Shown here: positions 2,429-58,734 of the stretch, piece after piece
How positions within the stretch are numbered: the stretch's first letter is position 1
Layout of the letters: each line of letters starts with the position of its first letter
NCBI GenBank assembly: GCA_040766505.1
Contig: JAXGQJ010000004.1
Location: forward strand, 17,549 to 81,548
Reading direction: 5' to 3'
Source of the DNA: Clostridiales bacterium
Lineage (GTDB): Bacteria > Bacillota > Dehalobacteriia > UBA7702
DNA: 64,000 nucleotides
Translations under genes and position numbers: made by a program
Notes under the pieces: generated by a model
Seen by the model: the letters and a program-made list of their open reading frames with translations, nothing else
What the model was told of the DNA's origin: nothing
Database searches by the model: none

Positions 2429-2611
2429 GCTTCTCACTCCTTGTATTAAATCATCGAAAGCGCGGTTAAAGACCCAAAGGCCTTTGTCAAAAACCAAAGC
2501 GTTTAATGAGGGAGGGATAGGGGGCTCTTGCCCCCTGCCTTTCCTGCTTTATCCCGCGGAGGGCCTTGAACCGCGCCGCCGAAACGCCGCCCGCAAAACG
2601 CGGGGCCAAAC

Positions 2612-4096: not shown

Positions 4097-5515
4097 TTAT
4101 CCTTCAAGGTCTATACGGGCCTTCGCGGCAATTTCGTCCATGGCGGCCACCACATCGGCGGAAAGCGGCTTTGCCTTATGGTTGGCCAAAATCTCGGCCA
4201 ATCTGTCCTGGGCCAAAGCGCGGTAATTCTGGCCGCCGGCAGCGAAAAGGAAGGAATTTTCCGCCTTTTCCATAAAGATTTCCCGGCGGAAATGGCGGAA
4301 GGTATGGTCGTGGCTGAGGAAATTGCCCCGGGGCCCCATTTCGGCGATCACGTCGAGGGCGGCGGTTTCCGCATCCAGGCTGAACTCCCGCAAATAGGCT
4401 TTGCTGTAACGGTAGACTTCGAGATCGAGAACAACGTCGACCAGCGAAGAGCTGAGACAGCTTTCCCGGGTGCCGAACCAACAGCAAACGTCGGGCCGGG
4501 TCATCAGCTTCATCGCCAGTTTATAGACATTGCGTTCGAACCCGGCGACGGTGGAGAAGTCTTTGAATTCCACGGTGCCGCCAACCTCGGAAGGCAGGCC
4601 GTAGAACCGGGCCATATCCACATCGGCGGCGCCCAAAAGCAAATATTCGCTGTTTTCATAGTCGATGCCACCGGTTCGCAAATCCGGCGCGCCGGCATCG
4701 GAAGAATAGAAGAAGCGGGCGTCTTCGGCGGCGCACTTCGCCACCATATAACAGGCCAGCACCTCGCTGTTGACCAATAGGGTGTCGGCGGCGACGGTCG
4801 CCGGGGAAGTGGTGGTCATCTGTGGCAGCGACATCGGGATGATCGGAATGCCGTGGCGGGCGGAAACGGCAATGGCGTCGGCAATGCCCCCTTCCAGCGC
4901 CAGCGGCGTTGTAGGCGCGGAAAGCAAAGACATGATCGGGTTTTTCCGCAGCCGGTCGGTACCGCCGGTGACGGCGGCAGCCAGCTCGATTTGCCATTGG
5001 GCCAGTTTGCCCGAGGCGGAAGAGCACTGTATATGTTTCGTTAAGTTACGAAACGAAATGTCCAGCGCTTTAAACTCCTGGTATTCCCCGTCAAATTCAT
5101 GGGGGAACATCAGCGGCCAAAAGCAGTCCATATCCGCGGAAGCGTCGGCTAAAATACAAAGCTGGGTCAAATCGTTCTCGGTCACATAACGTTTTTTGCC
5201 ACTGTCCTCGTCTTGAATATAGGGAACATAACCGGCTGGGGTTGTGAAGGGATGCCCGCCGGCGGGAAGGGACAGGGTGTGCTTTTCATCCCTCGCCCCC
5301 AACGGGAAAGAGGAAATGGCGAGGCCCAACATTTCCTTCACCATTTCTGCGGGGAACCGCACATTGTCGCCGATGACCTTGGCCCCCTTTTTCGCCAATA
5401 GGCCGCGAACCTCTTCGCTGCCGATATAAACACCGACGGTGGACAAGAGCTCCAATGTCTTTTCGTGGATATATTCCTGCTCTCCTCTACTTAATAATGA
5501 CAATTGTGTACGCAT
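4097..5515 (-). CDS. MttB-superfamily methyltransferase without pyrrolysine (MtgB/MtpB/MtcB-like quaternary-amine:corrinoid methyltransferase candidate)
   Basis: ORF 4097..5689; uninterrupted frame with sense codons at the Pyl column (..FYGLPSEVGGTVEFKDF..); start set to ATG 5513..5515 (MRTQLSLLSRGEQEY) with AAAGGAGA 7 nt upstream; 12-nt gap to mttB. Confidence 0.8.
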   Translation of the reverse strand: MRTQLSLLSRGEQEYIHEKTLELLSTVGVYIGSEEVRGLLAKKGAKVIGDNVRFPAEMVKEMLGLAISSFPLGARDEKHTLSLPAGGHPFTTPAGYVPYIQDEDSGKKRYVTENDLTQLCILADASADMDCFWPLMFPHEFDGEYQEFKALDISFRNLTKHIQCSSASGKLAQWQIELAAAVTGGTDRLRKNPIMSLLSAPTTPLALEGGIADAIAVSARHGIPIIPMSLPQMTTTSPATVAADTLLVNSEVLACYMVAKCAAEDARFFYSSDAGAPDLRTGGIDYENSEYLLLGAADVDMARFYGLPSEVGGTVEFKDFSTVAGFERNVYKLAMKLMTRPDVCCWFGTRESCLSSSLVDVVLDLEVYRYSKAYLREFSLDAETAALDVIAEMGPRGNFLSHDHTFRHFRREIFMEKAENSFLFAAGGQNYRALAQDRLAEILANHKAKPLSADVVAAMDEIAAKARIDLEG

Positions 5516-5560
5516 TTTTGGTCTCCTTTCCTGCGATGGCCACTCGCTTATCCATTCATA

Positions 5561-5577
5561 ATGCAAATCCGATGCCA
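5561..5577 (-). promoter_or_regulatory. sigma-54 (-24/-12) promoter candidate TGGCAT-N5-TTGCAT
   Basis: minus strand 5577->5561 reads TGGCATCGGATTTGCAT with correct GG-N10-GC spacing; about 46 nt upstream of the MttB-family start codon and directly downstream of a sigma-54 activator gene. Confidence 0.55.
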
Positions 5578-5591
5578 TCCCAAGAAAAACG

Positions 5592-5630
5592 ATAAAAAAA
5601 TCCCCTCTCGGATGTTTCAAAAGAGGGAGA
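5592..5630 (-). terminator. rho-independent terminator of the sigma-54 activator gene
   Basis: minus strand CTCCCTCTT-13 nt loop-GAGAGGGGA followed by TTTTTTTAT. Confidence 0.5.
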
Positions 5631-5787
5631 ACAAGCCGGTCTAGGAATTTGTCCTTTCGGACACAGTTTTCAATCGATGGCGGCATCAAAAATACGCCGT
5701 ATTTTTCGGACGGAAAGCAAAAACAGCGGCAAAAACGATACGGTTGCGCTACATATCGGAACAGCAGCGATACAGCAACGAGACACT

Positions 5788-7698
5788 TTATTCCGTTTTT
5801 TCCTCCAAACGCTTCAAACGCCGGTAAAGGGTCGAGCGGGCGACGCCCATATTTCGGGCGGCCAGGGAAATATTGCCATTGGCGGCCTTCAAGTGTTCCA
5901 ACAGCTCCTTTTCTTCCGATTCCTCCCGGCGGCGGGCTTCCTTGGCCAAAATGGCGGCAACGCTTTCCTTTATTGCGGGCTTTTCCGCTTCCCGCTTCGG
6001 CTTTTGCAGGGTGCCGGCAATATGCTGGGGCAAATCCTGCGGCGTGATCTTAGCGCCACCGGAAAGGTATAATACCCGCTCGGCCACATTCTGCAATTCC
6101 CGCACATTGCCGGGCCAATCATAGCGGCTTAAAGCCGCCAGCACCTTGGGATCAATGGCGGCCAGGGTTTCCTCCTTGCTGTAGCGCGCCAAAAAGTTGC
6201 TGAACAAAAGCAAAATGTCCTCTTTTCGTTCCCGCAAGGGCGGAATATGAAGGTTGATAACATTCAGGCGATAATAGAGATCCTGGCGGAAATTTTTCCG
6301 CATCACCTCTTCCAGCAAATCCTTATTGGTAGCGCAGATGATGCGCACATCCACCGGAATTTCCCGGCTGCCCCCCACCCGGGTGATGCGCCGCTCCTGG
6401 ATCACCCGCAATAGGGCGGCCTGCTGCTCCAAGGGCATATCACCGATTTCATCGAGGAAGATGGTGCCGCCCCGGGCCAGTTCGAATTTGCCCGGTTTGC
6501 CTCCTTTTTTTGCCCCGGTGAAGGCCCCCTCATCATAGCCCAACATCTCCGAGCCCACCAGTTCCCTGGGGATCGCGCCACAGTTGACGGCGACAAAAGG
6601 CCCCTTATAACGGGCGCTGCTGTTGTGGATCGATTGGGCGAACAGCTCCTTGCCGGTGCCGCTTTCCCCTTCGATCAAGACGCTGCAATCGCTGGCCGCC
6701 GCTTGCCGGGCGAGGAAGATCGTTTCCTGCAAATTGCCGCTATTGGTCACAATATCGGAAAATTGGAAACGGGACTGGGCGCCGCTGAAGATATTGACCA
6801 GCTTATGCACTTGGGCGATGGGCTTTAATACCAAAAGGCTGCGATGGGAATCCTCCCCCTTGGCCTGCAGCGGTACACCGGAAGCAACAAAGTGGCAATC
6901 CCCGCTCTTCAGCGGAAAATGCATTTCTACGTCGCCAAATTTCCTCCGTTGAAAGATCAGCCGGTGCAAATAAGAATTGGTATCTTGCAATATCTGCCGT
7001 TTAAAACAGGCCAGCAGCTCGTCTCCGGCGGACAACCACTGCTTGTCCGGCCCATAATTCCAAAAAGCGCCGTTGCCATCGGCTTCCAACACGACGATCC
7101 CTTCGGAAATGCTGGCGAGAACCGTCTTTAAATCCTGGTTGACGATGGCCAGTTCCCGGTTGGTCTTGGCCAATTCCTGGGTACGCTGGCGCACCTGGCG
7201 TTCCAATTCCCCCTGCAAATTTTTGAAATGGGTGATGTCCCGGCCTACGTCTTGGTATTCCAACACATTGCCGTATTCATCATAGAAGCAACGGCCGACG
7301 CTTTCCACCCAAACGATGCTGCCATCGGGTTGGCGCACACGGTATTCATATTTGTAATAGGGATTTTCCGGCGTCAGCGCCGCCACCGCCGCATCGATGG
7401 CGGGGCAATCCTCCTTAACGAGAAAATCCATTGTGTTCTGGCCCAAAAGCGCCTCGGGTTCCACATTGTAGAGCTGGCACAAGGCTTCGTTTACATAGAG
7501 AAGGCGATAGTCGGGGCCGGAGCGCTCCACGCATTCCGTCATATTCTCTAAAATGGAATCGTACTGGGCTTTTCGCAAGCGCAGCTCGGCGATTTCCCGG
7601 TTCTGTTCCTCTATCTTCGCCTCGGCATTTGCCAATGCTTCTTTAAGGCCCGCCGCCGAAGCCGCGGCCTTCGTTTCCGTCGGTTCCATCGCATCCAT
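5788..7698 (-). CDS. sigma-54-dependent transcriptional activator with N-terminal PAS sensor region, AAA+ domain and Fis-type HTH
   Basis: 636-aa ORF; GESGTGKE Walker A, GAFTGA sigma-54 contact motif, C-terminal ..LEHLKAANGNISLAARNMGVARSTLYRRLKRL. Confidence 0.85.
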   Translation of the reverse strand: MDAMEPTETKAAASAAGLKEALANAEAKIEEQNREIAELRLRKAQYDSILENMTECVERSGPDYRLLYVNEALCQLYNVEPEALLGQNTMDFLVKEDCPAIDAAVAALTPENPYYKYEYRVRQPDGSIVWVESVGRCFYDEYGNVLEYQDVGRDITHFKNLQGELERQVRQRTQELAKTNRELAIVNQDLKTVLASISEGIVVLEADGNGAFWNYGPDKQWLSAGDELLACFKRQILQDTNSYLHRLIFQRRKFGDVEMHFPLKSGDCHFVASGVPLQAKGEDSHRSLLVLKPIAQVHKLVNIFSGAQSRFQFSDIVTNSGNLQETIFLARQAAASDCSVLIEGESGTGKELFAQSIHNSSARYKGPFVAVNCGAIPRELVGSEMLGYDEGAFTGAKKGGKPGKFELARGGTIFLDEIGDMPLEQQAALLRVIQERRITRVGGSREIPVDVRIICATNKDLLEEVMRKNFRQDLYYRLNVINLHIPPLRERKEDILLLFSNFLARYSKEETLAAIDPKVLAALSRYDWPGNVRELQNVAERVLYLSGGAKITPQDLPQHIAGTLQKPKREAEKPAIKESVAAILAKEARRREESEEKELLEHLKAANGNISLAARNMGVARSTLYRRLKRLEEKTE

Positions 7699-30705: not shown

Positions 30706-32197
30706 TCAAATGTGGTATTCGGAAAGGGGAAGGCGGCATGCGCTTTCCATTTCATTTACGATATCCCGCACCGTTTTGCCAATATGGGGCAAAAGGGGCG
30801 GAACCTGATAATTCCGGTACAAATCCAAGGCCCGTTCATTGGCATTTTGGAGAATGTCCCGTCTGCCCGCCGCCTCCCACTCTTCCGGCATGGTGCGGTC
30901 AATCAAATTTGACTGCGACTGGCTTTCCTTAAAATATTGAAAGGTATGGCTGTGCGGATACGAATTCTCCGCCGGGGCCCACCTCGCGGATGGCGGCCAA
31001 TGCCAAAGATTCCTCATCCACCTCGATGCCTTTCAAAGCGTGAAGAATCATACCGGCGAATTCATTGTCCATAACCAGCTTGGAATAATCGAAGGTAATG
31101 CCCAATCCCAGCATACCCAGGCCATAAATCACATTGGCGCCTGCCAATGCCGCCAACAGCGCCGAGAGGGTGGTCTCATGGCCCGCTTGGGCGTCGGGAA
31201 CTTTGGCATCGGCCTAGCCGCCCGCAACCCAACTGGGCAAATGATAAAATTGGGCAATTTGCGCCACCGAGGCGGAGATCATGCCCAATTCCGGCGCTCC
31301 CACCCCGGCGGTGGTGGTGCGCAGATCCATCATCGTCGTGGAGCTGCCATAAATAAAGGGATTCCCCGGCCGGATGCCCTGGCACAAAACGAGGCCCGCC
31401 AACACCTCGGCATTGTGAACCACCAAGGTGCCGGCGAGGGTCACGGGGCCGGTTCCGCCCGACAGGGCCATGGAAAGCACATTGACGGGGATGCCTGCCA
31501 TCGCGGCTTCCATAATCACTTCCGTCGTATCCGGATTCAAGGAAAGGGGGCTGTTCGGGCAACAGAGAGGGGAATAGATCGGCCGCTTTCTCAGATTCTC
31601 CATCCCTCCTTGGATCGCCGCGGCCATGCGAATGATGGCTTTGGCGTTCTGCCCATTGCCCGCGCCAATAAAGGCATGTTTCGTTGTGTGATGGAAAATG
31701 GCCTCCGCATTGTGAATGCTTTGCACTTCCGGCGGAACTTCATCGGCGCCCAGCGCCCTTTCATAGACGGCGATGTTTTCCATCGCGTCACAGAGGCGCG
31801 TGGCGTCGCCAACGTCTTTTTTTGTAGAATTTTTCGCGGAGCGGCTTACCGGATCCACCACCTTGATTCCTTCGCCAAAATTGGTAAATGTCACCTTTTT
31901 CCCGTAGAGATAGACGTCGTTCTTGGGATTGCGCCCGCAGAGAAGAACAGAGCTCGGCGCCGCCCTGAGGGCGTCCTCCACCATGCTGGGCGTTACATAA
32001 ACGATTTGCCGGGCGGCGTCAAATTCCGCGCCCAGGCCTAAAAAAATGTCTTGCGCCTCCGGAGAAATCACCTTGACGCCGGTGTTCTGCAATATATCCA
32101 GGGTAGCGCCATGCAAGAGATACAGGTCATCTTCGGAGAACAGGTTCAACCCTATGCCGAGTATTTTCTCCTGCCCCGCCAATAAAGCGCGATTCAT
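30706..32197 (-). CDS. mttB: second, divergent pyrrolysine-type MttB-family methyltransferase (in-frame UAG 31214..31216; additional frameshift ca. 30965)
   Basis: ORF 31214..32197 ends ..[11 protein letters not shown], then TAG, then in-frame ..[17 protein letters not shown] (30929..31156); last ~100 codons continue in another frame (30706..31017); about 50% identical to copy 1. Confidence 0.75.
31214..31216 (-). other. in-frame amber codon, predicted pyrrolysine codon of mttB copy 2
   Basis: cta on plus strand; same alignment column (VAGG-O-A) as in copy 1 although flanking nucleotides differ. Confidence 0.75.
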
Positions 32198-32463
32198 TTT
32201 ATCTCCCCCTTCTTTTGGTCATCGTCGCCCTTTTTGCCTTTTGTGTTGTTCTTATTATAGCAGAAATTGAAATCCGTTCCCGCCTACAAAAAGTAAAATG
32301 ATGACTTTACACTTCGTAAGATTCCCCGGCGGGGCAAAAAAACTTAATTTTGGTAAAACGGAAACTAGACAATGTGTAAAATGACATTTTATCAATTCAA
32401 TGCTACGCTTAGGGCAATTGCCATAAAAAACCGTATATAGAGATTTTGGAAGGAGAGAGAAAA

Positions 32464-33954
32464 ATGGGTGAAATCAAAAGGCTTCAATATTTCGCCGGCG
32501 GCCAATGGCACACCTCAAAAAGTGAAACGTATATGACCGTATACAATCCCAGCACCGGCCAGCCGATCGCCGAAACGCCCTGCTGTACCGAGGAGGAGTC
32601 AACCATGCCGTCGCCTGCGCGAAAGAAGCGTTTCCGGGCTGGAGGGACACCCCGGCCATCAAAAGGGCCCAAATCCTCTAAACTACGGGATCTGTTGATG
32701 GAACATTTGGATGAACTCACCTATCTGGTGGCCTGGGAAAATGGCAAAGCCTGGGGCGACGCAAAAGGCGATGTATTGAAGGCGAAGAAGCCGACGGAGG
32801 TCGCCTGCGGCATTCCCAGCCTGATGATGGGCGAATCCAGCATGGACACATCAAAAGGCGTGGATACCGTACTATACCGCGAACCGTTGGGGGTTTTCGC
32901 GGGGATCGTTCCCCTTTAATTTTCCCGCGATGATTCCGATGGGCTGGATGACGCCGTTTGTATCGCCGCCGGCAATACCATCGTTTTAAAAGCCGCCAGC
33001 ATGACGCCGCAAACCGCGATGCGCATCGCCGATTTATACCGCGAAGCCGGCCTGCCCGACGGCGTGCTGAATCTCGTCACCTGCTCCAGGAATGAAGCGA
33101 ATCTGCTGCTTTCCCATCCGGATATCAAGAGCATCAGCTTTGTCGGTTCCACCGCCATCGGCCTTTCCGTCTATTCCCAGGCCGCCGCCGCCGGTAAGCG
33201 GGTGCAGTGCCTCTGTGAGGCGAAGAACCATGCCCTCGTCCTAGACGACGCGCCGATAGAACGAACCGCGGCGGGCATCATCAATTCCTGCTTCGGCTGT
33301 GCCGGAGAACGGTGCATGGCTTTGCCGGTTGTCGTCGCCCAGGAAAGCATTGCCGATCAACTGGTGGCGGCGATCGTTCGCAAGGCGAAAGAGCTAAAGG
33401 TGGGGCCGGCCTATGAAAAAGATACGGAGATGGGCCCCTTGGTCTCCGGCGGCCATAAGGATTTTGTCCTCAAATGGATCGACAAAGGGGAGGCGGAGGG
33501 CGCCGAAATGGTTCTGGACGGTAGGAATTTTAAGGTTCCCGGTTATGAGAACGGTTTTTTCGTCGGCCCCACCGTCGTGGACAAGGTACGGCCCGGCATG
33601 ACCATTGGCGATGAAGAGATCTTTGGGCCGGTGGTCTGCATCAAAAGGGTGAAGGATTTTGAGAGGGGCCTGGCCCTGATGAATGAAAACCAATTCGCCA
33701 ATGGCTCCGTTATTTTCACCCAGAACGGCTATTATGCCAGGGAATTTGCAGGGCGAACCGACGGCGGCATGGTCGGCGTTAATGTCGGCATCCCGGTTCC
33801 CATCGGCATTTTCCCCTTCTCCGGCCACAAACGCTCCTTCTTTGGCGATCTGCATTGTCTCGGAAAGGATGGCATCCGCTTCTATACCGAATCAAAATGC
33901 GTAACCACCCGCTGGTTCGACGAAGAAGAGCTGAAAAAGAAGGTCGATACTTGA
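32464..33954 (+). CDS. mmsA: CoA-acylating malonate/methylmalonate-semialdehyde dehydrogenase (MmsA/IolA type); frameshifted between ca. 32600 and 33000
   Basis: N-terminus MGEIKRLQYFAGGQWHTSKSETYMTVYNPSTGQPIAE after GGAAGGAGAG; ORF 33001..33954 (GERCMA, FPFSGHKRSFFGDLHCLGKDGIRFYT) matches MmsA closely. Confidence 0.75.
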
Positions 33955-35731: not shown

Positions 35732-37415
35732 TTAACGGCAAAGCGGCGGCTCCAGCCCGCTCACTTCTTGCACATCCTCATACTTATGGGTCACTTTGAT
35801 CTCCTTTTCTTTGTCTTGGCCAAAGTCCTCTTTCAGCATTCGATTCCCTGAAAGCACAAGGATCACAAAAATCGGAATCAGGAAAATCGCCGCGGCGATG
35901 GAAAGGGTTTGAATTTGCCCCGCCACGCCAAGATAGGTCAGGATCACCGCCAGCACCGCCATGGCGATGGCCCAGGAGAACCGATGCCAACGGGCCGGCT
36001 GCTCTTCCGCCTTTAAATCGCCGGAACAGATGGAAGCGATGGTATAAGCGGAAGAGTCGATGGTGGTGGCCGCGAAGATAAACGCCAGGACGATGTATAG
36101 AATAAGAAAGAAGATAGGAATCGGCAATGTTTGCAAAACCGCGATGATGGTGCCCACATTGCCCAGCTCCGCCATGGCTTCCGTCATCGCCATGGTTCCG
36201 GTCCATTCCAGATACATGCTGTATCCGCCCATGACCGCAAACATGCCACAGGTTCCAAACGTTCCAAACACCAATTCGGCGACGACCAATTGGCGAATGG
36301 TGCGGCCTTTCGATATACGCGCAACAAAAAGGCCCATCATCGGCGCATACGCCAGCCACCAGGCCCAATAAAAGACCGTCCACCATTGCGGGAAACTGGC
36401 GCCATTGTCCAAGACGGAGAATGGATCTGTCCAAAGGCTGATGCGGAAAAAATCCGCCAGCATGAGGCCGATGCTGTTCGTGGTCAGATTAAAAATAAAG
36501 GAAGTATAACCCCTAAACAGGCCGATGACCAAAATCCCGATGGCAAATAGGATCGCCAGATACAGGTTAATATCGCTCAACCGCGATATGCCCTTGTCGA
36601 GGCCGAGGAAAATCGAAGTGCCGAAGATCAGGAACCAGATGCCGATGACCACAAAAACAATCCAGGTCGAATTGCTGAGATCCAGGCCGAAAACACTGCC
36701 GGCCAGGCCGGTAATGGTCGGCACCGCAATGGACAATGTGGTGCCGACGGCGCCGACGATGCCGAAAATAGAAAAGATGTCGATCAGCACGCCGAGCCAA
36801 TTGTCGGCCCATTTCCCCAGCAGCGGTTTGCATGCGGCGCTCAGGCGCAGGATGTTCTTTTTACGCACAAAGATCATATAGGCGATCGGCACCGTTGGAA
36901 TGCAATAGATCGCCCAGGCGCTAAAGCCCCAGTGAAACATCGGATACATATGGGCATATTCAAAAATCAGCGCCTTGGCGGAACCGGTAAGGTTGACGCC
37001 AATCCCGGCGGCGGAATCCACATTATAAAGGGCCGCCAAACCGAGGGCGCGCCATCCAAATAGCTGACGCTTTCATAAAATCCCCAGCTCATAATCCCGC
37101 CGCCGATGCCGGCACAAAACAGCATTGCAACCCAGTTAAACCAGGAATAATCGGGTTTGTCCTCCGGCCCCCCAACTTGACCGTACCGTAGCGCCCCACA
37201 GCCCAATACAGCAACACAAAAAAGCAAAACAGACAGAACAATAAATAGGCCCAGCCCCAAGGAATCGTCGTCCAATTAAACGCCGAGGTGATCATCTTGG
37301 AAGCAATGTCCCGCGACAGAGAAATCGGCAGAAAAATCGCGAGCAGAACGATCACGGCGGGCAGGGTTACCCTTTTATCCACCTTTACATACCGAAACGG
37401 ATCTTCCAATTTCAT
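35732..37415 (-). CDS. BCCT-family (betaine/carnitine/choline) transporter; two frameshifts in N-terminal third
   Basis: ORF 35732..37039 (435 aa, many TM helices) plus 36967..37275 and 37089..37415 (N-terminus MKLEDPFRYVKVDKRVTLPAVIV.., AGIGGGIMSWGFYES). Confidence 0.75.
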
Positions 37416-37585
37416 GTTTCATCCTCCTTTACCCTATTTTAAATTATCCAAAAATTATGCAACCAAAGGCCCCACCTCCCTCATTTTGGCAATAAAAAAG
37501 CACCGGAACATGCATTCTGCATTTTTATAAGAAATGCATCTCCGTCATACGCCAATCGCCGATTGGCAAAAAACAGTGATCTTGG

Positions 37586-37632
37586 CCGAAAACCGGGAAA
37601 GGAAACGGCATTTTCGCCCGTTTCCTTTCCCT
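37586..37632 (-). terminator. rho-independent terminator after MttB-family gene 37640..39060
   Basis: minus strand GGGAAAGGAAACGG-10 nt-CGTTTCCTTTCCC then GGTTTTC. Confidence 0.55.
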
Positions 37633-37639
37633 TCCCCTA

Positions 37640-39060
37640 TTATTCTTTTACAACCGAACGGATATAATCCTGCAAAAGGCGGTCGAGTTCGGAATCGAGC
37701 ATGGTTTCCGGCGCCGCCGCCAAGCGCTCTTTATAGAGACGGTGGGCCCGCTCCAACATGTCCCGGCCTTCCATTTTCGCATAGCTGTCATAGGAGGACC
37801 AATCGGAAACCGTCGGCTGCCAATATTCCTTATAGTGTTCAAATGTGCTGGCATGGGCCAAATAACTGCCCTGCCCCACCTCGTCAATCAGATCCAGAGA
37901 CATGGCTTCGTCTCCGATGTCCATACCGGCGGCGATGCGGAAAACGCGTTCCACACATTCCTCGTCGATGATAAACTTTTCAAAAGACATGGTCATAATC
38001 GAATCGAGCACCCCCAAGCATTCATGGATGATATGGGCACCGCCCAGAATGCCCATCATCAAGTTTTGCATCGTTTCCAAAGCGGATTGGGGGTCAACGG
38101 TTTTCGCTTCCGACATTCCCGTCATCATACGGGTCGGCAGATGGTAAAAATGGTGGAAGATATCGAGGGAGGCCAGGTCGATCAGGAACATCTCCGGCGC
38201 CGCCGAGAGGTAGGAAGCGCGCTTCATATAGGTAATAGAGGAACAGGGAGCCGCCACAACCGGGCAGCCGGGCTTTACCAGCTGTACCAAAACCAGACCG
38301 GCGATGATTTCCGCCACCTGGGTCATCACGGTTCCGAACAGGTGCACCGGTGCGGTGGCGCCGCTCATGGCGCAGGGCAACACCATCACCACTTGACCGG
38401 CTTTCGCATAGGTCAGGATCGCTTCGGTGGTATCGGTGCCGAAAGCCAATGGGCTTAACGGATTGGCGGAAACGGCGGTTACGATCCGGTCATCGGAAAT
38501 CTCGTCCAGGCCAAAGGCCAGCGCCGTCATTTTCAACAACTGGCTGCTGTTTGCGCCATTGCTGTTGATGCTGATGATGGCTTTGTCCGTATGCCGCAAT
38601 ACCGCATAGAGCATATGGAGGTGCTTGGTGCTTTGGTCGATGTCATTGGGATTGATGGGATTCGCGCCGACAAGGCCGGTAACGGAACTGCTTTGGTGCA
38701 ATTTCTGCACAGCGGCATAATCCGCCAAAGTGCCGAAACGGCGGGGCCCTTGCCAGTCTTGCATATAAACACAACCGACATTGGGCTCACAAACCTGGTC
38801 CCGGCCCATCAAGATGGTATGGTTCGGATTCCGGGCCTCCCAATAGAATTGGGAGGGCGCCGTCTGCAAGGCACGTTCCGTCATCTCTTTTGGAATATGC
38901 ACCACATTTCCTCAACGCGGGCGCCGTGGGAGCGAAACACCTCCACAGCCTCGGGGCAGTCAAACCGTATACCGGTACGATCCAAAATGGTGAGCACCCC
39001 GCCGTGCACGCGTTCCATATCGTCGCGGTTCAACATCGACAGTCTGGGTTTCCTGATCAT
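37640..39060 (-). CDS. MttB-superfamily methyltransferase without pyrrolysine, copy 2 (one frameshift ca. 38890)
   Basis: ORF 37640..38905 (421 aa) plus N-terminal fragment in 38881..39177 (MIRKPRLSMLNRDDMERVHGGVLTILDRTGIRFD); no stop at the Pyl column. Confidence 0.75.
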
Positions 39061-39082: not shown

Positions 39083-40387
39083 TTAATTGCACGCGCCGTC
39101 CAAGATGGCCAGGTTCTTATCGAGGACGGCCAGCACATCATCGAGTTGATCCTTGGTGATGACCAAAGGAGGGCCAAAATTCATCAGATTGCTATAGGTC
39201 ATGTGATAGACGCCGTCCTTCAGATTGGCGCTTTTGAACGCCGACATAGAGGCATCGTCCATCTTTTCCTTCGTTTCGCGGTTTTTAACAAATTCCAAGC
39301 CGATAAATAGGCCGATCCCTCGCACATCGCCGATGGCGGGATGATGCTCCTGCAGTGCCTGGAGCTTCTCTTTCGCATAGGCGCCAAGGATCACTGAATT
39401 CCTCAATAAACCTTCTTCGCCATAAATCTCCATCACCCTGCAAGCGGTGGCGACACTTAATGTATGTCCGCTATAGGTCAAGCCCGCCGACAGCTTGCGG
39501 TCTTCAAAATAATCGGCGATTTCATCTTTAACCGCCACCGCCCCCAAAGGAGCGTAGCCGCTGGTCATCCCTTTGGCCATTGTCACCATGTCGGGGACGA
39601 TGCCAAAATGTTCAAAGGCGAACATTTTGCCGGTGCGGCCGAAACCCGCCATGACTTCATCGCAAACCAGCAAAATCCCGTACCGGTCGCAAATGGAACG
39701 GATCTTAGGCAGATAGCCTTTCGGCGGCACAATGATGCCGTTGGTTCCGGTGACCGTTTCTAAAAAGACGGCGGCGATGGTGGCGGGGCCTTCATATTGC
39801 ACCACCTCTTCAAAATGCTTGGCGCATTCCAAATGGCAATTTTCCTCCTTTTGGCCGAAAGGGCAACGGTAGCAATAGGGATCGAGAAATTTCACGACGC
39901 CGGGAATCAGAGGCTCCGCGTCAACGCGCCTGGGATCGCCGGTTAAGGCGAGGGCGCCGGCGGTGGCGCCATGGTATGAACGGTAGCGGGACAACAGTTT
40001 GGAGCGGCCCGTATAATAGTGGGCGATCTTGATGGCGTTTTCATTGGCGTCGGCACCGGCATTGGTGAAAAAAACCTTGCCAAACCCTTTCGGTAGAAAA
40101 TCGACGATTTTTTTCGCACATTCCCCTTTTTTGCTATTGCTGAAGCAGGGCGCCGCAAAGGTCAATACATCCGCCTGCTCTTTCAGAGCGGCGATTGCTT
40201 TAGGATGCTGGTGCCCGATATTACAGTTGACCAACTGCGCCGACAGATCGACAAAACGGTTTCCTTCCGCGTCGAAAAAATAGATGCCCTCTCCCCGCTC
40301 CATCGGTATCGGGTAAATCGCGCCCTGCACAGACCAGGAAAACAGATTGTATTTTCTGTTCAGCTTGATGATTTCCTTATTGTCCAT
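39083..40387 (-). CDS. class-III PLP-dependent aminotransferase (omega-amino acid / beta-alanine--pyruvate transaminase type)
   Basis: ORF 39083..40552; start MDNKEIIKLNRKYNLFSW at 40387 after AAAGGAGAGAG; ..VTMAKGMTSGYAPLGAV.. PLP-lysine region. Confidence 0.8.
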   Translation of the reverse strand: MDNKEIIKLNRKYNLFSWSVQGAIYPIPMERGEGIYFFDAEGNRFVDLSAQLVNCNIGHQHPKAIAALKEQADVLTFAAPCFSNSKKGECAKKIVDFLPKGFGKVFFTNAGADANENAIKIAHYYTGRSKLLSRYRSYHGATAGALALTGDPRRVDAEPLIPGVVKFLDPYCYRCPFGQKEENCHLECAKHFEEVVQYEGPATIAAVFLETVTGTNGIIVPPKGYLPKIRSICDRYGILLVCDEVMAGFGRTGKMFAFEHFGIVPDMVTMAKGMTSGYAPLGAVAVKDEIADYFEDRKLSAGLTYSGHTLSVATACRVMEIYGEEGLLRNSVILGAYAKEKLQALQEHHPAIGDVRGIGLFIGLEFVKNRETKEKMDDASMSAFKSANLKDGVYHMTYSNLMNFGPPLVITKDQLDDVLAVLDKNLAILDGACN

Positions 40388-40620
40388 TCTTCTCTCTCCT
40401 TTTGCTCGTTTTTCGATGCCATCGCCGCTGCGGAAAGGGGGGATCAGCCCATGAAGAAACGCCCCTTTTTCGCCTCTTCCGATGAAGAGAATGCGCCGGA
40501 AACGGCGGCGTTCGCCCAACGGCCCCGCGCAGCCGTTTTCCGGCCAAACCAAAGCATCACACCCTGCTTCACTGATTGCAACAAATGGTCTTTCCCCACA
40601 CTGTACCCGTTCCTAGCAGA

Positions 40621-41271
40621 TTATGACCGCAATAGCTCCATGGCTTTCGTGACGCCGTCGGCGGCGTTTTCCGCAAATGCGTCGGCGCCGATCCGTTTGG
40701 CCCAATGCTCCGTTACCGGCGCGCCACCCACAATGGTTTTGAATTTTCCCTTCAGCCCTCTTTCCAGCAACAGGTTTTCCAAATGCTTTTGCTGTATCAT
40801 GGTTGTGGTCAACAGGGAGCTGGTGCCGATAATGTCCACATCATATTCCACGGCCTTTTCCAGGATCGCGGCATTGGAGACATCCCGTCCCAGGTCGATC
40901 ACCTCAAAGCCATTGGCAACCAAAAGTGAGGCTACGATCCCTTTGCCAATGTCGTGAATGTCGCTTTCCACCGTAGCGATCAAAAACTTGCCGGCGCTGC
41001 GTTTTTCCCCGCCGGAAGTTGCCAGAGCTTCATTTAAAACCGTCAAAGCTTCCTTCATTGTTTCCGCCGCCCGCATTAGTTCGGGCAAAAACAGCGTCCC
41101 TTCTTCAAACCGGTCGCCGACTTCCATAATGCCGGGAATGAAACCGTCGTCGATCAGCCGGTTGGGCGCCAGGCCCATTTCCAAACCTTGTTTGGCGATG
41201 TCCACGGCCCCTTCGGCATCCCCTTCCACAATGGCCTGTAAAGCATCGTTTAACAGCGCGTCATTTTTCAT
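40621..41271 (-). CDS. methylamine-family corrinoid (cobalamin-binding) protein, MtbC/MttC-like
   Basis: 216 aa; B12-binding DxHxxG (SDIHDIGKGIV); 30-nt gap to mtbB. Confidence 0.8.
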   Translation of the reverse strand: MKNDALLNDALQAIVEGDAEGAVDIAKQGLEMGLAPNRLIDDGFIPGIMEVGDRFEEGTLFLPELMRAAETMKEALTVLNEALATSGGEKRSAGKFLIATVESDIHDIGKGIVASLLVANGFEVIDLGRDVSNAAILEKAVEYDVDIIGTSSLLTTTMIQQKHLENLLLERGLKGKFKTIVGGAPVTEHWAKRIGADAFAENAADGVTKAMELLRS

Positions 41272-41301: not shown

Positions 41302-42690
41302 TCAAAAGGTCATACCGGTTTTTTTTGAAAATTTCTCCACACAGTTGATTTCAATTCCCAATAGTTTTGCAATATTGGCCTTGGCCTCAATGCCCCGGCT
41401 GGCGGCTCCATACCCCATGAATACAGTGGCGATGTCCAGATCCTCCCGGACTTCCCGCATGGCAACTTCATCGGTGAGATCGAGCAAACCAACCCCCAGC
41501 TTTCCGGCGACATATTCCTTCGCTTCATTTAAGCGCATTTTTTTTGCCAGTTGCATCCGTGCCACCAAATCCCCGGCGGTGCGAACCCCCCCCAAGCCGG
41601 AGGCCTGGCTGTGAACGATGGCCATCCCGGAAGGATCGCCATAACCAACCTACAATCCGTCCATTTTGGCGATTTCCGCCATAGCGGTAGAGGCCCGGGA
41701 AACCGCGTCGATGGGCGGCGTGATCTGCATCGGCACGCCGCCAACCCCCATGCCCACATTGGCGTGAACCGGAATCGGCGAAATTTCGCCGCAATATTTA
41801 CACATCGTGACCGACCGTGCCAAGTTCCAGGGAAAACTTTTTTTGGTATTGGTATTGACCACAGCGCCAAAAACGTCGCCGCCGGCCCGGGCTACCATTT
41901 CCGCCTGGCGGTGCGGATACATGCCCGCCAACCTCTCGCCATGGTAGGTAATTTCGCCATGGAAGCCGAGAATAAATTCACCGGCCATGCCGACTTCAAT
42001 TTGGATCTTGGGATATTTCGCTTTTAGATTTTCAACGCCCCGCAACACCGCATAGAATTCCGCATCTCCTCCGGCGGCGGTCGTGTCAAAGTCGATGCCG
42101 TCGGCGCCGGCTTCAAACATCGCGGCGCCAAGCAAGCCGATATCGCCGATCAGCATTTCCGCGGTTTCCATCTGTGCTTCCTGGGCCTCCCGTATCTTAC
42201 CCTTTGGCATCAGCTCCGCCGCGTTTTCAGCGGGGCCGTCGGGCTTCGTATACATGGGCATATTCGGCATTGCGCCGTATAAAAGCGGCAAGGTTGTGCC
42301 CAATAAGGCCTCCGCCGTTATATATTGCTCCTCGGGCAAGATGGTTTTCAACGGCTTGAAGCTATAATGCACATAGGCCATCTCCAATGTGTCGGCCATT
42401 AAAACCCGTTCATAGGTTTGCAGGATCTGCGGCCTTGCGATCGGAAGGCCCAGCCGGGTGAATTTCAGCGGCTGAGAATCATAGGTAAGAACAAGTTCAT
42501 TGCCTCGCTCCACACTGACAAATTTGCGCGCTTCACAAATGATTTCCATCAGTTTTTCAATATCATCACCGGTGAGCGGCGGACATTTGCAATTCTTTAC
42601 AGCCTGGGCCACCCCGCTTTCGATCTCTTCACGAATCTCAGCCCGTGACATCTGCACGAAGGTTCCGTCTCCCATGCGTGTGCGTATCAC
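41302..42690 (-). CDS. mtbB: dimethylamine:corrinoid methyltransferase MtbB, pyrrolysine-containing (in-frame UAG 41650..41652)
   Basis: ORFs 41650..42690 (..[22 protein letters not shown]) and 41302..41625 in one frame separated by TAG: ..[38 protein letters not shown].., matching the archaeal MtbB Pyl context as recalled (..VDGI-O-TIGVGDP..). Confidence 0.8.
41650..41652 (-). other. in-frame amber codon, predicted pyrrolysine codon of mtbB
   Basis: cta on plus strand at junction of ORFs 41650..42690 and 41302..41625. Confidence 0.75.
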
Positions 42691-42734
42691 AATATACCCC
42701 CCTATCTTTTTTTAAGTCGGTTTTATTGCTTTCA

Positions 42735-42816: not shown

Positions 42817-44433
42817 CTATACCGTTAAGTGTCCGTTATTTTTCCCAAACAAATAGGCGTGCAGGGCAAATTCCAAGGCGAACCGTTTTGCCCCACGGTC
42901 AAAGCCTTCGCCGAGGATGTCCTCAATTTTTTGCAATCGAAAATAAAGGGTCTGGCGAACCACAAAAAGTTTTTCCGCCGTCTTTTGCTTGGAGCAGTTG
43001 CATTCAAAAAAGGTCATCAGCGTATGCAGCAGCTCTTTATTCTCGGGCCGTACCAAATCGCCGAGGTGATCCGCAATAAAGTCCGCAAGCAGTTCCCCTT
43101 CCGCCAAACCATAAAGGATGCGGTCGATATACAATTCTTCATAAAAAACGGTTTGCCGATGCTGTTTTTTTACGATCTCCATGGCGATCCAAGCCGTATC
43201 ATAGCTAAGATGCAGGTCTTCACAGCGGTATACCCGCTTTCCGAGAGAAAAATGGGCCTTTGAATAGTCGATATAGGGGTTTTGCCGATCCCGCAAGGTT
43301 TCCACCAGGCCGTTTACATGGGCCCAAACCTCTTTCCCCGGGGCGGGGGCCAATAGGATATAGATAAACGTATTGTTCTCCATATAACTTAAAAGGCAAA
43401 GGCCCGCGTCCTCAAAGGTTTTGCGCACAATCGCATTGGTATGCAGCAAAAAATCCTCGTTGAAGCGAAACGCATCCATCGGGGTGTTTCTGTCGCAGCG
43501 GAGAATATCCACCAGAAAGACTTGCGCCCCGATCTTGCCATATTGCAGGCCCATATGCCGCAAATGGGTCAGCACATCCCGTTCCCGTAGTTTTCCTTCC
43601 AGCCAATCCCTAAGCCAGCCGTAATTTTTGCGCAAGGCCTCTTCCTTCACGAGCATTTCCTTCATAATATCATGCTCCAATTTATCGGCCAGGCGATCCA
43701 AAATGAGCATTTCAAATTGGGTAAGGTCGCGTTCATTGCTATGGAAGGCCAAAATTCCATAGGGCTTTCCCACCACTTTTAACATCTTCGCCAAAAAGTT
43801 CTCTTTGGAAAAAATGCGATCCTCTTTAATGTCGTCCCGATACTGGTGCACCCACCTTTCCAAAACCGTGGCCATGGTGGGATCGGAATGATACGGTTTA
43901 TTGTGATAAGGCAGATAGGCGATATTGAGTTTTAAATATCTCGCGGTATAGGCCACGCTTTCGTCGATGCTCTGATTTTCCGCCAAAAATTTCAATTGGT
44001 GCTCATAGTAGTCCACATGCTGAAAGATTTTGCTGCTGCTGCTGATGATCCGGGTATTGATTTCCCGGGTGATGTCGATAAAGCGCACGGCTTTGGAAAA
44101 AATAATCAGTGGAAAATCGTGTTCTTTCGCGAGATCGATCATGGCCTGGGGGATCACTTTGTAATAATAAAACGCTTCGATACAAAGGGCCGAAACATTG
44201 CGGGCGATCAATTGCCGCAAAAATTCAACGGCAATTTCCGTGTTCTCAAAGCCAATTCCGGTGGTAAGAACAAGTTCATCGCCGTTGACATATTCCGTAA
44301 TATCGTCTCGAATTTCTAAAATGTGTACCCAACTCACTTTACGGCCCAGGTTTTTTGAGCCGACCAAAACGAGAGCGACATCTTGTAAGCCGGGCATTTC
44401 CAGAACATCTCTCAATGTCACACCAAAATCCAT
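42817..44433 (-). CDS. PucR-family transcriptional regulator (terminates with UAG)
   Basis: ORF 42817..44457; C-terminal PucR HTH ..TAEKLFVVRQTLYFRLQKIEDILG..; start MDFGVTLRDVLEM after GAAGGAGGT; TAG stop with in-frame TAA four codons later. Confidence 0.8.
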   Translation of the reverse strand: MDFGVTLRDVLEMPGLQDVALVLVGSKNLGRKVSWVHILEIRDDITEYVNGDELVLTTGIGFENTEIAVEFLRQLIARNVSALCIEAFYYYKVIPQAMIDLAKEHDFPLIIFSKAVRFIDITREINTRIISSSSKIFQHVDYYEHQLKFLAENQSIDESVAYTARYLKLNIAYLPYHNKPYHSDPTMATVLERWVHQYRDDIKEDRIFSKENFLAKMLKVVGKPYGILAFHSNERDLTQFEMLILDRLADKLEHDIMKEMLVKEEALRKNYGWLRDWLEGKLRERDVLTHLRHMGLQYGKIGAQVFLVDILRCDRNTPMDAFRFNEDFLLHTNAIVRKTFEDAGLCLLSYMENNTFIYILLAPAPGKEVWAHVNGLVETLRDRQNPYIDYSKAHFSLGKRVYRCEDLHLSYDTAWIAMEIVKKQHRQTVFYEELYIDRILYGLAEGELLADFIADHLGDLVRPENKELLHTLMTFFECNCSKQKTAEKLFVVRQTLYFRLQKIEDILGEGFDRGAKRFALEFALHAYLFGKNNGHLTV

Positions 44434-44570
44434 GTGAACCTCCTTCACTCTTTTCACAATGAAGACGCAAATGAGATGCTTTCCATCCTTAATTTTATTA
44501 TAAAGATCGGGCCATGGTTGTCAATAAAATACCGAAACATTCCGCCGCCGTTCGAAAAGCAACGGAAGGC

Positions 44571-58702: not shown

Positions 58703-58734
58703 TTTTTCACCCCCTATCGTCGTTATTAAATGTA

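Follow-up and report, generated by a model that had tools for sequence, protein, structure and literature searches.

The locus considered here raises two questions: whether a single in-frame TAG in a gene resembling mtbB, the gene of dimethylamine (DMA) methyltransferase, is read as pyrrolysine (Pyl) in an anaerobic Clostridia-type bacterium, and, if so, which amine is demethylated by the resulting enzyme. The gene is located on the minus strand of the window, i.e., the whole 64-kb stretch of DNA that was analysed, and comprises the following elements:

41302..42690, minus strand: mtbB, DMA-type corrinoid methyltransferase gene (translation, PF09505, TIGR02368, identity to the Methanohalophilus halophilus gene)
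41650..41652, minus strand: probable pyrrolysine codon, the in-frame TAG that forms codon 347 of mtbB (alignment with the archaeal TAG, bacterial copies, first base of the PYLIS_2 match)
42697..42703, minus strand: Shine-Dalgarno-like AGGGGGG, separated from the GTG of mtbB by a 6-nt spacer (direct reading of the sequence)

Translated from 42690 to 41302, mtbB consists of 462 sense codons including UAG, with one internal stop, and terminates with TGA at 41304..41302. An earlier interpretation made from the sequence alone (the sequence-only reading) had taken two listed open reading frames, 41650..42690 and 41302..41625, as halves of one frame with TAG as the sole break, and translation agrees with it; the start of the second one, 41625, is the first ATG in the ORF listing, while the mtbB frame is open from 41649 on. 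The start codon is the GTG at 42690, and a database protein 100% identical to the window MtbB (P0001) uses the same start. The surroundings of codon 347 read ...[45 protein letters not shown], as the sequence-only reading had quoted them, and 115 codons lie between the TAG and the TGA.

The read-through translation matches the Pfam family PF09505 (Dimeth_Pyl) with 622 bits (cut-off 25) over residues 3–456, corresponding to positions 4–462 of the 463 positions of the profile, and scores 488.2 bits against TIGR02368, the NCBIfam MtbB equivalog (cut-off 369.1). In a global alignment with mtbB of M. halophilus (49.3% identity), the window TAG falls on the TAG of the archaeal gene, codon 356 of 467, so that the proposed correspondence with the Pyl position of archaeal MtbB held. 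TAG occupies this column in both archaeal mtbB genes fetched (2/2), fragments from named Methanosarcinaceae have their C-terminal end at residue 355, and for archaeal MtbB, Pyl at the UAG position has been established by mass spectrometry (PMC2933860). A scan of species-representative genomes yielded at least 439 confirmed mtbB places, the best 79 of which are all bacterial; with the Pyl column defined by sequence comparison, these 79 loci, from several phyla, contain 88 mtbB copies, and TAG is found at the column in all 88 (81 of 81 motif instances plus the 7 remaining loci). Database MtbB homologues are nearly all N-terminal fragments of 346 residues with DGL as last residues, and gene calls that read through have Q at the Pyl column.

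Bacterial mtbB is less rare than had been assumed. Apart from the places recovered in the genome scan, Pyl-type mtbB was reported in 2007 by Zhang and Gladyshev from the Olavius algarvensis delta-1 symbiont (PMC1976440) and in 2021 by Kivenson et al. from marine Desulfobacterales (PMC8318568); the function of bacterial Pyl methyltransferases has been called unclear in published work (PMC3941956; PMC9768040). The gene described here thus is a bacterial Pyl-mtbB of an already known kind, and what is new is the further bacterial lineage. It groups with a Clostridia clade of Anaerovoracaceae/Peptostreptococcales-like metagenome-assembled genomes (MAGs), its closest relative among the matches listed being that of Clostridiales AnMBR.bin322 (locus L009, 88% identical), and the signature that follows its Pyl is [15 protein letters not shown]. 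No solved MtbB structure was found, either by sequence search of a PDB copy or by Foldseek with the AlphaFold model of a bacterial homologue 48% identical to the window MtbB (P0099; pLDDT 86, pTM 0.90). The model consists of alternating beta and alpha elements with the Pyl column on strand 351–354, and the solved folds closest to it are (beta-alpha)8 barrels of a generic kind, among them the methyltransferase domains of BHMT and MetH.

Downstream of the TAG, the gene has diverged less than in its N-terminal part. Comparison of the post-TAG region with five relatives gave pN values of 0.04–0.13 as against pS values of 0.67–0.98 (0.043 and 0.665, respectively, for L009); judged by these values, the region is under strong purifying selection and is kept as protein.

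Two further genes of the window carry a TAG at the Pyl column of their family:

2615..4084, minus strand: first Pyl-type mttB, intact, 490 codons, TAG at 3101..3103 (PYLIS_3 75.8 bits, translation, Pfam, tblastn)
30757..32197, minus strand: second Pyl-type mttB, TAG at 31214..31216, frame shift near 30960 (PYLIS_3 74.6 bits, translation, tblastn)

In the second gene, tblastn places residues 1–414 in frame -1 and residues 407–480 in frame -2. The first is flanked by a non-Pyl MttB homologue (4097..5689), a sigma-54 activator (5788..7698) and an amino-acid permease (1028..2497). Both TAG codons are real and stand in the context ...VAGG-TAG-AD..., and a match to PYLIS_3 of Rfam begins at each of them. 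The TAG of mtbB had been counted as the third Pyl codon of the window and mtbB as its second Pyl enzyme class, beside two mttB genes; both statements proved right.

The mtbB TAG is likewise associated with an Rfam match:

41553..41652, minus strand: match to PYLIS_2 (RF02509, the mtbB 'pyrrolysine insertion sequence'), 58.2 bits as compared to a gathering score of 36, model positions 1–100
41557..41584, minus strand: conserved RNA hairpin in the mtbB coding region, 68–96 nt past the UAG, 11 pairs, AGAU-type loop, one internal mismatch

The first base of the PYLIS_2 match is the T of the TAG. The whole model is matched, but its score derives largely from conserved coding sequence, and its two hairpins behave differently. 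The 5' hairpin contains 8 non-standard pairs in the window, is 68.6% paired over 57 bacterial genes, and thus lacks support in bacteria, whereas the 3' helix is 84.7% paired in the bacterial genes, or 86.1% when extended to 11 pairs, and shows some covariation. In a control with the partners slid, paired cells dropped from 86.1% to at most 43.7%; the wobble-position pairs 75:90, 72:93 and 69:96 ranked first, fourth and fifth of 253 by mutual information, and 10 of the 11 pairs form in the minimum-energy fold of the window sequence. The two archaeal mtbB genes show a weaker hairpin (7/11 and 5/11 pairs). Located 68 nt past the UAG, it presumably is too distant to touch the decoding ribosome. 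PYLIS as a recoding signal was considered and rejected: the 5' hairpin is unconserved, the fold energy is unremarkable (z = -0.98), and the element is dispensable in published work, which found no PYLIS in mtbB and the mtmB element not to be essential (PMC2933860).

The genes on either side of mtbB code for a corrinoid protein and a regulator:

40621..41271, minus strand: corrinoid (B12-binding) protein, presumed methyl acceptor of MtbB (PF02607 + PF02310)
42817..44457, minus strand: PucR-family transcriptional regulator directly upstream of mtbB, stop codon TAG (PF07905 + PF13556)

As had been noticed before, the corrinoid protein gene directly follows mtbB: its ATG at 41271, with a GGAGGG ribosome-binding site, lies 30 nt past the mtbB stop. 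The DxHxxG motif of the protein reads SDIHDIG. Since it misses both specific cut-offs, just below that of TIGR02370 (pyl_corrinoid; 211.1 vs. 215.3 bits) and below that of MtbC, NF041607 (192.2 vs. 350 bits), it is regarded as a corrinoid protein of the cognate type rather than MtbC proper. In 51 of the best 79 loci, a homologue is encoded no more than 10 kb from mtbB. The PucR gene is preceded by a consensus promoter, TTGACA-16-TATAAT, at 44524..44497, and PucR homologues flank mtbB in 9 of the best 79 loci. Weak similarity of the regulator to PmfR, the activator of the 4-methylaminobutyrate operon of Arthrobacter (52.7 bits, cut-off 800), was also observed and was not used as evidence.

The gene very probably codes for a genuine Pyl-type methyltransferase of the MtbB family, which is translated through the UAG and works together with the adjacent corrinoid protein. 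By analogy with MtbB, MttB and MtmB of Methanosarcina, a tRNA-Pyl/PylS system, the genes of which would lie in another part of the genome, would insert pyrrolysine at the UAG, giving a product of about 462 residues with the predicted fold of a TIM barrel, in which Pyl would be on one of the barrel strands. The imine of Pyl and the amine nitrogen of the substrate would form an ammonium adduct, from which the methyl group would be transferred to the Co(I) of the neighbouring corrinoid protein. It would then be passed on by a second methyltransferase, in a bacterium presumably to tetrahydrofolate, while a RamA-type activase would keep the cobalt reduced; neither of these two enzymes is encoded in the window. 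The default substrate would be DMA, supplied for instance by the two Pyl-MttB enzymes of the window, and would be converted to monomethylamine. Which amine is used is less certain than any other step of this explanation, with free DMA slightly more likely than not to be the physiological substrate. Doubt arises from the metabolic genes downstream of the mtbB–corrinoid pair:

39083..40552, minus strand: class-III (omega) aminotransferase, likely start Met at about 40387 (PF00202 315 bits; NF004718 539 bits, cut-off 472)
37640..39042, minus strand: gene of the MttB superfamily whose Pyl column has no TAG, frameshift near 38910 (PF06253 308 bits, profile positions 77–493)
35732..37039, minus strand: BCCT (betaine/carnitine/choline) transporter, N-terminal part in another frame or upstream (PF02028 322 bits, positions 121–484)
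32446..33954, plus strand: aldehyde dehydrogenase of the CoA-acylating methylmalonate/malonate-semialdehyde type, two ORFs by frameshift (TIGR01722, Pfam Aldedh)

Among solved structures, the closest relative of the aminotransferase is taurine:2-oxoglutarate aminotransferase (6jix; 383 bits, next best 279). The non-Pyl MttB gene, the N-terminal 44 residues of which are found in another frame by tblastn and the upstream frame of which contains stops, presumably codes for a quaternary-amine methyltransferase. The syntenic counterpart of the BCCT transporter in L009 is 85% identical, and TIGR01722 matches the dehydrogenase with 86 bits (positions 2–145) and 365 bits (positions 175–477). A plain DMA pathway needs neither the aminotransferase, the non-Pyl MttB, the BCCT transporter nor the aldehyde dehydrogenase, and these four are counted against it. 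Moreover, the 64-kb window contains no mtmB, URO-D-type second methyltransferase, RamA or aldehyde:ferredoxin oxidoreductase (AOR) gene. The proposed scheme of trimethylamine (TMA) being converted via DMA and monomethylamine to ammonia finds no support in the window, given this absence of mtmB, which is found near bacterial mtbB in just two of the best 79 loci (L067 and L078), as judged by a probe sequence that was validated solely by the 56%-identical full-length genes of these two loci.

The neighbours suggest that a different substrate is worth considering. With family and mechanism unchanged, MtbB might act on a larger N-methylated secondary amine, the final intermediate still to carry a methyl group when a betaine is completely demethylated, a possibility that we advance tentatively and consider rather doubtful at present. 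The BCCT transporter would import the quaternary amine, and the non-Pyl MttB homologue would take the first methyl group; Pyl-MttB would take the second one from the tertiary amine, and Pyl-MtbB the remaining one from the secondary amine. The omega-aminotransferase would then turn the primary amine into an aldehyde, to be oxidised by the aldehyde dehydrogenase. Beta-alanine betaine, methylated taurine or a related compound would be candidates in the window, and conversion of gamma-butyrobetaine to GABA would be a candidate for the GabT-linked clusters of Desulfobacterales. All six functions are encoded on the same strand or adjacently, within 30.7–44.5 kb of the window, and the chemistry fits: quaternary amines are direct substrates of non-Pyl MttB homologues, and Pyl is thought to make a quaternary-like adduct from a non-quaternary amine (PMC12155760).

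The wider set of loci points in the same direction, albeit with exceptions. Of the best 79 loci, 24 have a class-III aminotransferase gene no more than 10 kb from mtbB, 12 of these 24 at a distance of up to 400 bp and 22 of them on the same strand as mtbB; none is present in the two archaeal mtbB clusters examined. In this comparison, the background frequency of such genes is an estimate and the archaeal controls are two loci. The aminotransferases belong to different subfamilies which track the MtbB subclades, that of the window being Toa-like and the L077 type GabT-like (closest to E. coli GabT, 421 bits). Aldehyde-oxidising enzymes also recur: homologues of the window dehydrogenase, of the MMSDH type and 62–64% identical, occur near mtbB in L014 and L049, and AOR homologues in 14 of the best 79 loci; in L057 such a homologue adjoins the aminotransferase–mtbB pair, and in L077 one lies two genes downstream of mtbB. 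The mtmB-bearing loci L067 and L078, by contrast, lack the aminotransferase and form a clade that separates from the remaining bacterial copies and branches beside the archaeal outgroup. On the other hand, the basis of this proposal is gene context; the window MtbB exceeds the equivalog threshold of DMA methyltransferases, and the surroundings of its Pyl are highly conserved with archaeal MtbB. The aminotransferase, 68–233 nt from the mtbB–corrinoid pair in the window, is about 1.9 kb away in L009, and no aminotransferase is present in the available flanks of L001–L008, which belong to the window's own clade. The generalisation that bacterial Pyl-MtbB and Pyl-MttB perform the later steps of complete betaine demethylation rather than being mainly DMA and TMA enzymes, with subclades paired with aminotransferase subfamilies serving different betaines, is likewise a speculative suggestion. 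No published link between Pyl methyltransferases and aminotransferases was found in the literature searched.

The same genes could be read as a substitute for MtmB: MtbB would make monomethylamine from DMA, the omega-aminotransferase would convert methylamine to formaldehyde, and an aldehyde oxidoreductase or dehydrogenase would oxidise the latter. The lack of mtmB in the window and in 77 of the best 79 loci, where aminotransferases and AOR-family enzymes are common, would agree with such a route, and the AOR family includes formaldehyde-oxidising members. However, aminotransferases of several subfamilies (GabT-like, Toa-like and others) are unexpected for one common substrate, and a CoA-acylating dehydrogenase of the malonate/methylmalonate-semialdehyde type makes no sense for formaldehyde. 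To our knowledge there is no methylamine transaminase, nor was one found in the literature searched, and we consider this route improbable.

Still less credible, and indeed very unlikely, is that no full-length protein is made, translation either stopping at the UAG to leave the 346-residue fragment or the gene being a decaying remnant in a genome devoid of Pyl machinery. It is true that neither ARAGORN nor tblastn with pylBCD revealed pylT, pylS or pylBCD in the 64-kb window; homologues of pylB, pylC and pylD occur within 10 kb of mtbB in 13–19 of the best 79 loci. Of 28 confident window genes, 4 also use UAG as a true stop, including rpsB and the PucR regulator gene next to mtbB, so that TAG avoidance as a sign of Pyl use was not seen in this set; the decoding of UAG therefore is ambiguous, as in other Pyl-using organisms. 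Finally, many genes of the window are disrupted. But what breaks these genes are single-base frameshifts, and essential genes (ispG, dxr, tsf) are affected too, so that faulty assembly is a likelier cause than decay; mtbB itself is intact despite the imperfect assembly around it. Conservation of the intact post-TAG codons above that of the N-terminal part, and retention of TAG at the respective Pyl columns by three separate genes, likewise speak against truncation or decay, and we infer by analogy that the capacity to decode UAG, i.e., the Pyl machinery, resides elsewhere in the genome. A sequencing error at the TAG, or a stop that arose by chance in an ordinary gene, is extremely improbable in spite of the many indel-type errors of the assembly, which are frameshifts and not substitutions, since all bacterial and archaeal copies inspected (88/88 and 2/2) share the TAG and no sense-codon variant was seen.

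With a Pyl-type MtbB as the preferred reading, one more bacterial lineage, a clade of Clostridia akin to MAGs from anaerobic digesters and sediments, apparently reads UAG as pyrrolysine, with three Pyl genes, representing two classes of enzyme, in 64 kb. The locus aids annotation, as standard gene callers cut Pyl genes at UAG, and it bears on estimates of bacterial methylamine use in competition with methanogens. The recurrent, subclade-specific association of mtbB with omega-aminotransferases and aldehyde-oxidising enzymes provides a specific hypothesis amenable to tests in vitro. If the betaine proposal were true, Pyl enzymes would enable bacteria to strip all three methyl groups from a betaine and then to use its carbon skeleton; the substrate range of pyrrolysine enzymes would be wider, and models of osmolyte turnover and of TMA-independent degradation of quaternary amines in sediments and guts would change.

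Compared with MtbB1–3 of Methanosarcina barkeri and other Methanosarcinaceae, the protein belongs to the same family over its full length, has UAG in the same column, and is encoded adjacent to a B12-binding corrinoid protein; the common motif is DG(L/I)-Pyl-(V/I)G.GDP...R.AGDLVARM. The corrinoid protein gene is located downstream of mtbB in the window but upstream in the two archaeal clusters examined, and mtmB, an mtbA-type second methyltransferase gene and pyl genes are absent from its vicinity in the window. In place of the methanogen neighbours, the window has the aminotransferase, the non-Pyl MttB homologue, the BCCT transporter and the aldehyde dehydrogenase, and in a bacterial host the methyl group cannot be channelled to coenzyme M and methane. 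With mtbB of the Olavius delta-1 symbiont and of marine Desulfobacterales, the locus shares the amber codon, Pyl-mttB, cognate corrinoid proteins and non-Pyl MttB homologues, whereas the lineage differs, the window gene belonging to the Clostridia clade. MttB and MtmB have the chemistry in common with MtbB, in that the pyrrolysine of a TIM-barrel methyltransferase is encoded by UAG and the enzyme methylates its cognate corrinoid protein, but there is no detectable sequence similarity between them and MtbB, and the Pyl column is located elsewhere (PMC9842639). In anaerobic bacteria, MtgB, MtcB, MtpB and MtyB of the non-Pyl MttB superfamily likewise demethylate methylated amines in a corrinoid-dependent manner, with the methyl group going to tetrahydrofolate; they use quaternary amines and remove one methyl group only (PMC12155760; PMC8604678). 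They form a protein family other than MtbB and lack Pyl, and one such homologue is encoded three genes downstream of mtbB.

The mtbB gene (42690..41302, minus strand) forms one reading frame of 462 sense codons with a single internal stop, the TAG at codon 347 (41652..41650, minus strand), and a terminal TGA; the two ORFs distinguished in the sequence-only reading are its halves, and the protein context of the TAG is identical to that quoted there. The GTG start at 42690 is preceded by the ribosome-binding site AGGGGGG and coincides with that of P0001, a database protein 100% identical to the N-terminal fragment. In family profile searches with lysine placed at the TAG position, the match to Pfam Dimeth_Pyl (PF09505) spanned the entire protein (622 bits), which also passed the cut-off of the NCBIfam equivalog [dimethylamine--corrinoid protein] Co-methyltransferase (488 vs. 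369 bits). A sequence search of the structure database found no solved structure for any relative. The AlphaFold model of P0099, a bacterial homologue with 48% identity (pLDDT 86, pTM 0.90), shows alternating beta/alpha elements with the pyrrolysine (Pyl) column predicted on strand 351-354; among solved folds it comes closest to generic (beta-alpha)8 barrels, with the methyltransferase domains of BHMT and MetH among them.

Four independent lines of sequence evidence place the TAG at the Pyl column. Gene callers end the frame at the TAG, so nearly every database homologue is a fragment of 346 residues with DGL at its end; in the few full-length calls (P0099, P0100) the residue at this column is Q, the mark of a translation table that reads TAG. 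Alignment with archaeal MtbB (the sequence-only reading had proposed Methanosarcina MtbB1-3) confirmed the column; it comprised two loci, L080 of the cultured methanogen Methanohalophilus halophilus (CP017921.1) and L081, an ENA metagenome contig whose gene content suggests Methanomassiliicoccales. In global alignments of the read-through translations, the window protein is 49.3% and 50.5% identical to L080 and L081, respectively, and its TAG pairs precisely with theirs (codons 356 and 355). The Rfam family PYLIS_2, modelled on the stretch around the mtbB amber codon, aligns to 41652..41553 with its full 100 positions (58.2 bits vs. a gathering score of 36), beginning at the T of the TAG. For archaeal MtbB, published mass spectrometry has identified the residue at the UAG as pyrrolysine (PMC2933860).

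Full-length MtbB entries with glutamine at the Pyl column are P0099, P0100, P0121, P0122 and P0129. These entries come from TAG-reading gene calling and do not represent real Gln variants. Other members of the 90% cluster of P0099 stop there; among them are truncated proteins of 352 residues, which carry the annotation MtbB and are assigned to Emergencia and Anaerotruncus. Archaeal fragment lengths provide the remaining line of evidence for the column: in P0100 the Q is residue 356, and its relatives from Methanosarcinaceae (Methanolapillus, Methanohalophilus, Methanolobus) are nearly all 355 residues long.

Scanning one genome per species (GTDB representatives) yielded at least 439 confirmed places encoding a relative. 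The best 79 of these loci are all bacterial and span Clostridia, Syntrophomonadaceae, Halanaerobiales, Dehalococcoidia, Spirochaetota, Desulfobacterales, Actinomycetota and others. Within these 79, all 88 copies have TAG at the Pyl column (81 of 81 motif instances plus the seven copies whose motif diverges), with no sense-codon variant found. In comparisons with five relatives, the 115 post-TAG codons differ by 0.04-0.13 at nonsynonymous and by 0.67-0.98 at synonymous sites and diverge less than the N-terminal part; purifying selection thus acts on the protein encoded beyond the TAG. The scan, together with bacterial reports since 2007, contradicts the earlier assumption that bacterial mtbB is rare: Pyl-type mtbB was described in the Olavius delta-1 symbiont in 2007 (six copies; PMC1976440) and in marine Desulfobacterales in 2021 (PMC8318568), and the view that mtbB is almost exclusive to Methanosarcinales, still stated in 2014 (PMC3941956), is outdated by the scan. 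The window mtbB is a known type of gene, in a Clostridia lineage most closely related to MAGs from digesters and sediments (Anaerovoracaceae/Peptostreptococcales); the closest locus among those listed is L009 (88% identical).

Two to three Pyl-mtbB paralogues lie within about 20 kb in L004, L017, L020, L033, L046, L049, L051, L055, L064, L076 and L079; they belong to different subclades and differ in their post-Pyl motifs (e.g. GMHAAHA vs. GMAITHA), which hints at functional diversification. A Spirochaetes MAG (L037, 6387-9490) has homologues of pylB, pylC and pylD immediately upstream of mtbB, and such homologues lie within 10 kb of it in 13-19 of the best 79 of at least 439 loci (including L018, L020, L023, L024, L030 and L053); physical linkage between mtbB and Pyl biosynthesis genes is thus frequent in bacteria.

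The PYLIS_2 match is mostly conserved coding sequence. Its 5' hairpin contains eight non-standard pairs in the window and is just 68.6% paired across 57 bacterial genes, in agreement with a report that no PYLIS is seen in mtbB and that the element is dispensable (PMC2933860). An 11-pair hairpin in the coding region (41584..41557, minus strand; 68-96 nt past the UAG, columns 69-96 of alignment A2), whose inner part is the 3' hairpin of PYLIS_2, is well supported: it is 86% paired vs. at most 44% with partners slid, mutual information in the 57 bacterial genes puts three wobble-to-wobble (synonymous) pairs at ranks 1, 4 and 5 of 253, and it is present in the minimum-energy fold of the window sequence. 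It is weaker in both archaeal genes examined, and at this distance it probably cannot act on a ribosome that is decoding the UAG.

TAG is also the terminal stop of four of the 28 confident window genes, namely rpsB (16628), hslV (18826), the PucR regulator (42817) and a GTPase (59372), and TAG avoidance was not seen elsewhere among these 28. UAG is thus ambiguous in this organism, as in other Pyl users, and these four genes would be prone to read-through if Pyl-tRNA is present.

The neighbourhood of mtbB and a second methylamine cluster comprise the following features.

Features around mtbB and in the second methylamine cluster (426-7698)
44524..44497, minus: perfect consensus sigma-70 promoter (TTGACA, 16 nt, TATAAT) preceding the PucR regulator
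44457..42817, minus: PucR-family regulator, upstream of mtbB
41271..40621, minus: corrinoid protein (B12-binding_2 and B12-binding domains, DxHxxG motif)
39083..40552, minus: class-III aminotransferase, first gene after the corrinoid gene
ends 37640, minus: MttB-superfamily gene without TAG at the Pyl column, after the aminotransferase
ends 35732, minus: BCCT transporter, after the non-Pyl MttB gene
32446..33954, divergent: CoA-acylating malonate/methylmalonate-semialdehyde-type dehydrogenase (TIGR01722)
32197..30757, minus: Pyl-mttB copy 2, beyond the dehydrogenase
5788-7698: sigma-54 activator with PAS domain, near Pyl-mttB copy 1
4097-5689: non-Pyl MttB-superfamily protein (530 residues, no TAG), near Pyl-mttB copy 1
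4084..2615, minus: Pyl-mttB copy 1, intact, TAG at 3101-3103
1028-2497: amino-acid-permease-family transporter, near Pyl-mttB copy 1
426-1028: 200-residue ORF without Pfam match, near Pyl-mttB copy 1

As anticipated from the sequence, the corrinoid gene directly follows mtbB, beginning 30 nt past its stop, and two Pyl-mttB genes carry the other Pyl codons, mtbB being the second Pyl enzyme class of the window. The corrinoid protein scores just below the pyl_corrinoid cut-off and far below the MtbC equivalog cut-off. No promoter resembling that of the PucR gene was found within the 126 nt that precede mtbB; expression dependent on an activator would be consistent with this. The 64-kb window revealed no tRNA, pylBCD, mtmB, URO-D-type second methyltransferase, RamA or aldehyde:ferredoxin oxidoreductase (AOR).

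Apparent single-base frameshifts break many window genes (9649-12737, 16114-16584, 32446-33954, 35732-39042, 30757-32197, 49049-51079 and 58316-59281): ispG/GcpE and dxr are each in two pieces, EF-Ts (tsf) is truncated, nuo-type antiporter subunits are fragmented with RNase HII/NuoA as one fusion ORF, the aldehyde dehydrogenase is split, the N-termini of the BCCT and non-Pyl MttB genes are missing, and near 30960 the frame of Pyl-mttB copy 2 shifts. Since the affected genes include essential ones, the breaks are probably indel errors of the assembly (e.g. from long-read data) rather than pseudogenes, which renders the fine structure of the mtbB neighbours uncertain; mtbB itself, unlike many window genes, is intact.

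The sequence data establish family membership, conservation of both the UAG column and the frame after it, a corrinoid partner next to mtbB and the co-occurrence of two Pyl-mttB genes; the mechanism is a proposal. By analogy with archaeal systems (PMC9842639, PMC2933860, PMC12155760), the UAG would be read as pyrrolysine, whose imine would bind the amine nitrogen to give a quaternary-like adduct; the methyl group would be taken by Co(I) of the corrinoid protein and passed by a second methyltransferase to tetrahydrofolate, while a RamA-type activase would repair oxidised cobalt. The default substrate, on the same analogy, would be plain dimethylamine, which we consider slightly favoured. The role of bacterial Pyl methyltransferases has been described by authors as unclear (PMC3941956, PMC9768040).

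It is possible, though less likely than plain dimethylamine, that many bacterial Pyl-MtbB proteins catalyze the last demethylation step in complete betaine demethylation, with a non-Pyl MttB acting on the quaternary, Pyl-MttB on the tertiary and Pyl-MtbB on the secondary amine, followed by transamination and aldehyde oxidation. This fits the accepted rationale that Pyl is needed for amines not already quaternary (PMC12155760), and it is suggested by aminotransferases tracking MtbB subclades, recurrent aldehyde-oxidising enzymes and the near-absence of mtmB around bacterial mtbB; it is, however, deduced from gene context. Literature searches turned up no published report of such a pathway or of a link between Pyl methyltransferases and aminotransferases. 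In a tblastn survey of window proteins against the best 79 of at least 439 mtbB loci, a class-III aminotransferase occurred within 10 kb of mtbB in 24 (L009, L014, L023, L025, L035, L037-L040, L045, L046, L048, L049, L055, L057, L059, L061, L062, L066, L068-L070, L073, L077), in 12 of these within 400 bp and in 22 on the same strand. The enzymes represent several subfamilies (Toa-like, GabT-like and others) following MtbB subclades, not one orthologous group: for those of the window and L009 the best match is taurine:2-oxoglutarate aminotransferase (6jix, 383 bits, well ahead of the next), whereas the Desulfobacterales type (e.g. L077) most resembles E. coli GabT (421 bits). L077 has the order Pyl-type mttB, aminotransferase, mtbB, corrinoid protein, URO-D methyltransferase, AOR. 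Of the 79 loci, 14 have an AOR homologue near mtbB, aminotransferase-bearing loci often also contain AOR homologues or MMSDH-type aldehyde dehydrogenases, and relatives of the window dehydrogenase (62-64% identity) occur near mtbB in L014 and L049.

The mtbB observation is thus confirmed and its interpretation supported, except for the claimed rarity and an implied TMA-to-ammonia pathway; the latter finds no mtmB in the window, and among the best 79 of at least 439 loci mtmB lies near mtbB solely in L067 and L078, a clade without aminotransferase that stands apart from the other bacterial copies, beside the archaeal outgroup. The gene itself is an ordinary but solid finding; the neighbourhood pattern is a testable, possibly new idea. 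The archaeal clusters L080 and L081 have the canonical mtbC-mtbB(-mttB-mtmB-pylS) layout, with no aminotransferase seen in either, and in Methanohalophilus a permease of the same Pfam families as that at 1028-2497 of the window lies directly downstream of mtbB.
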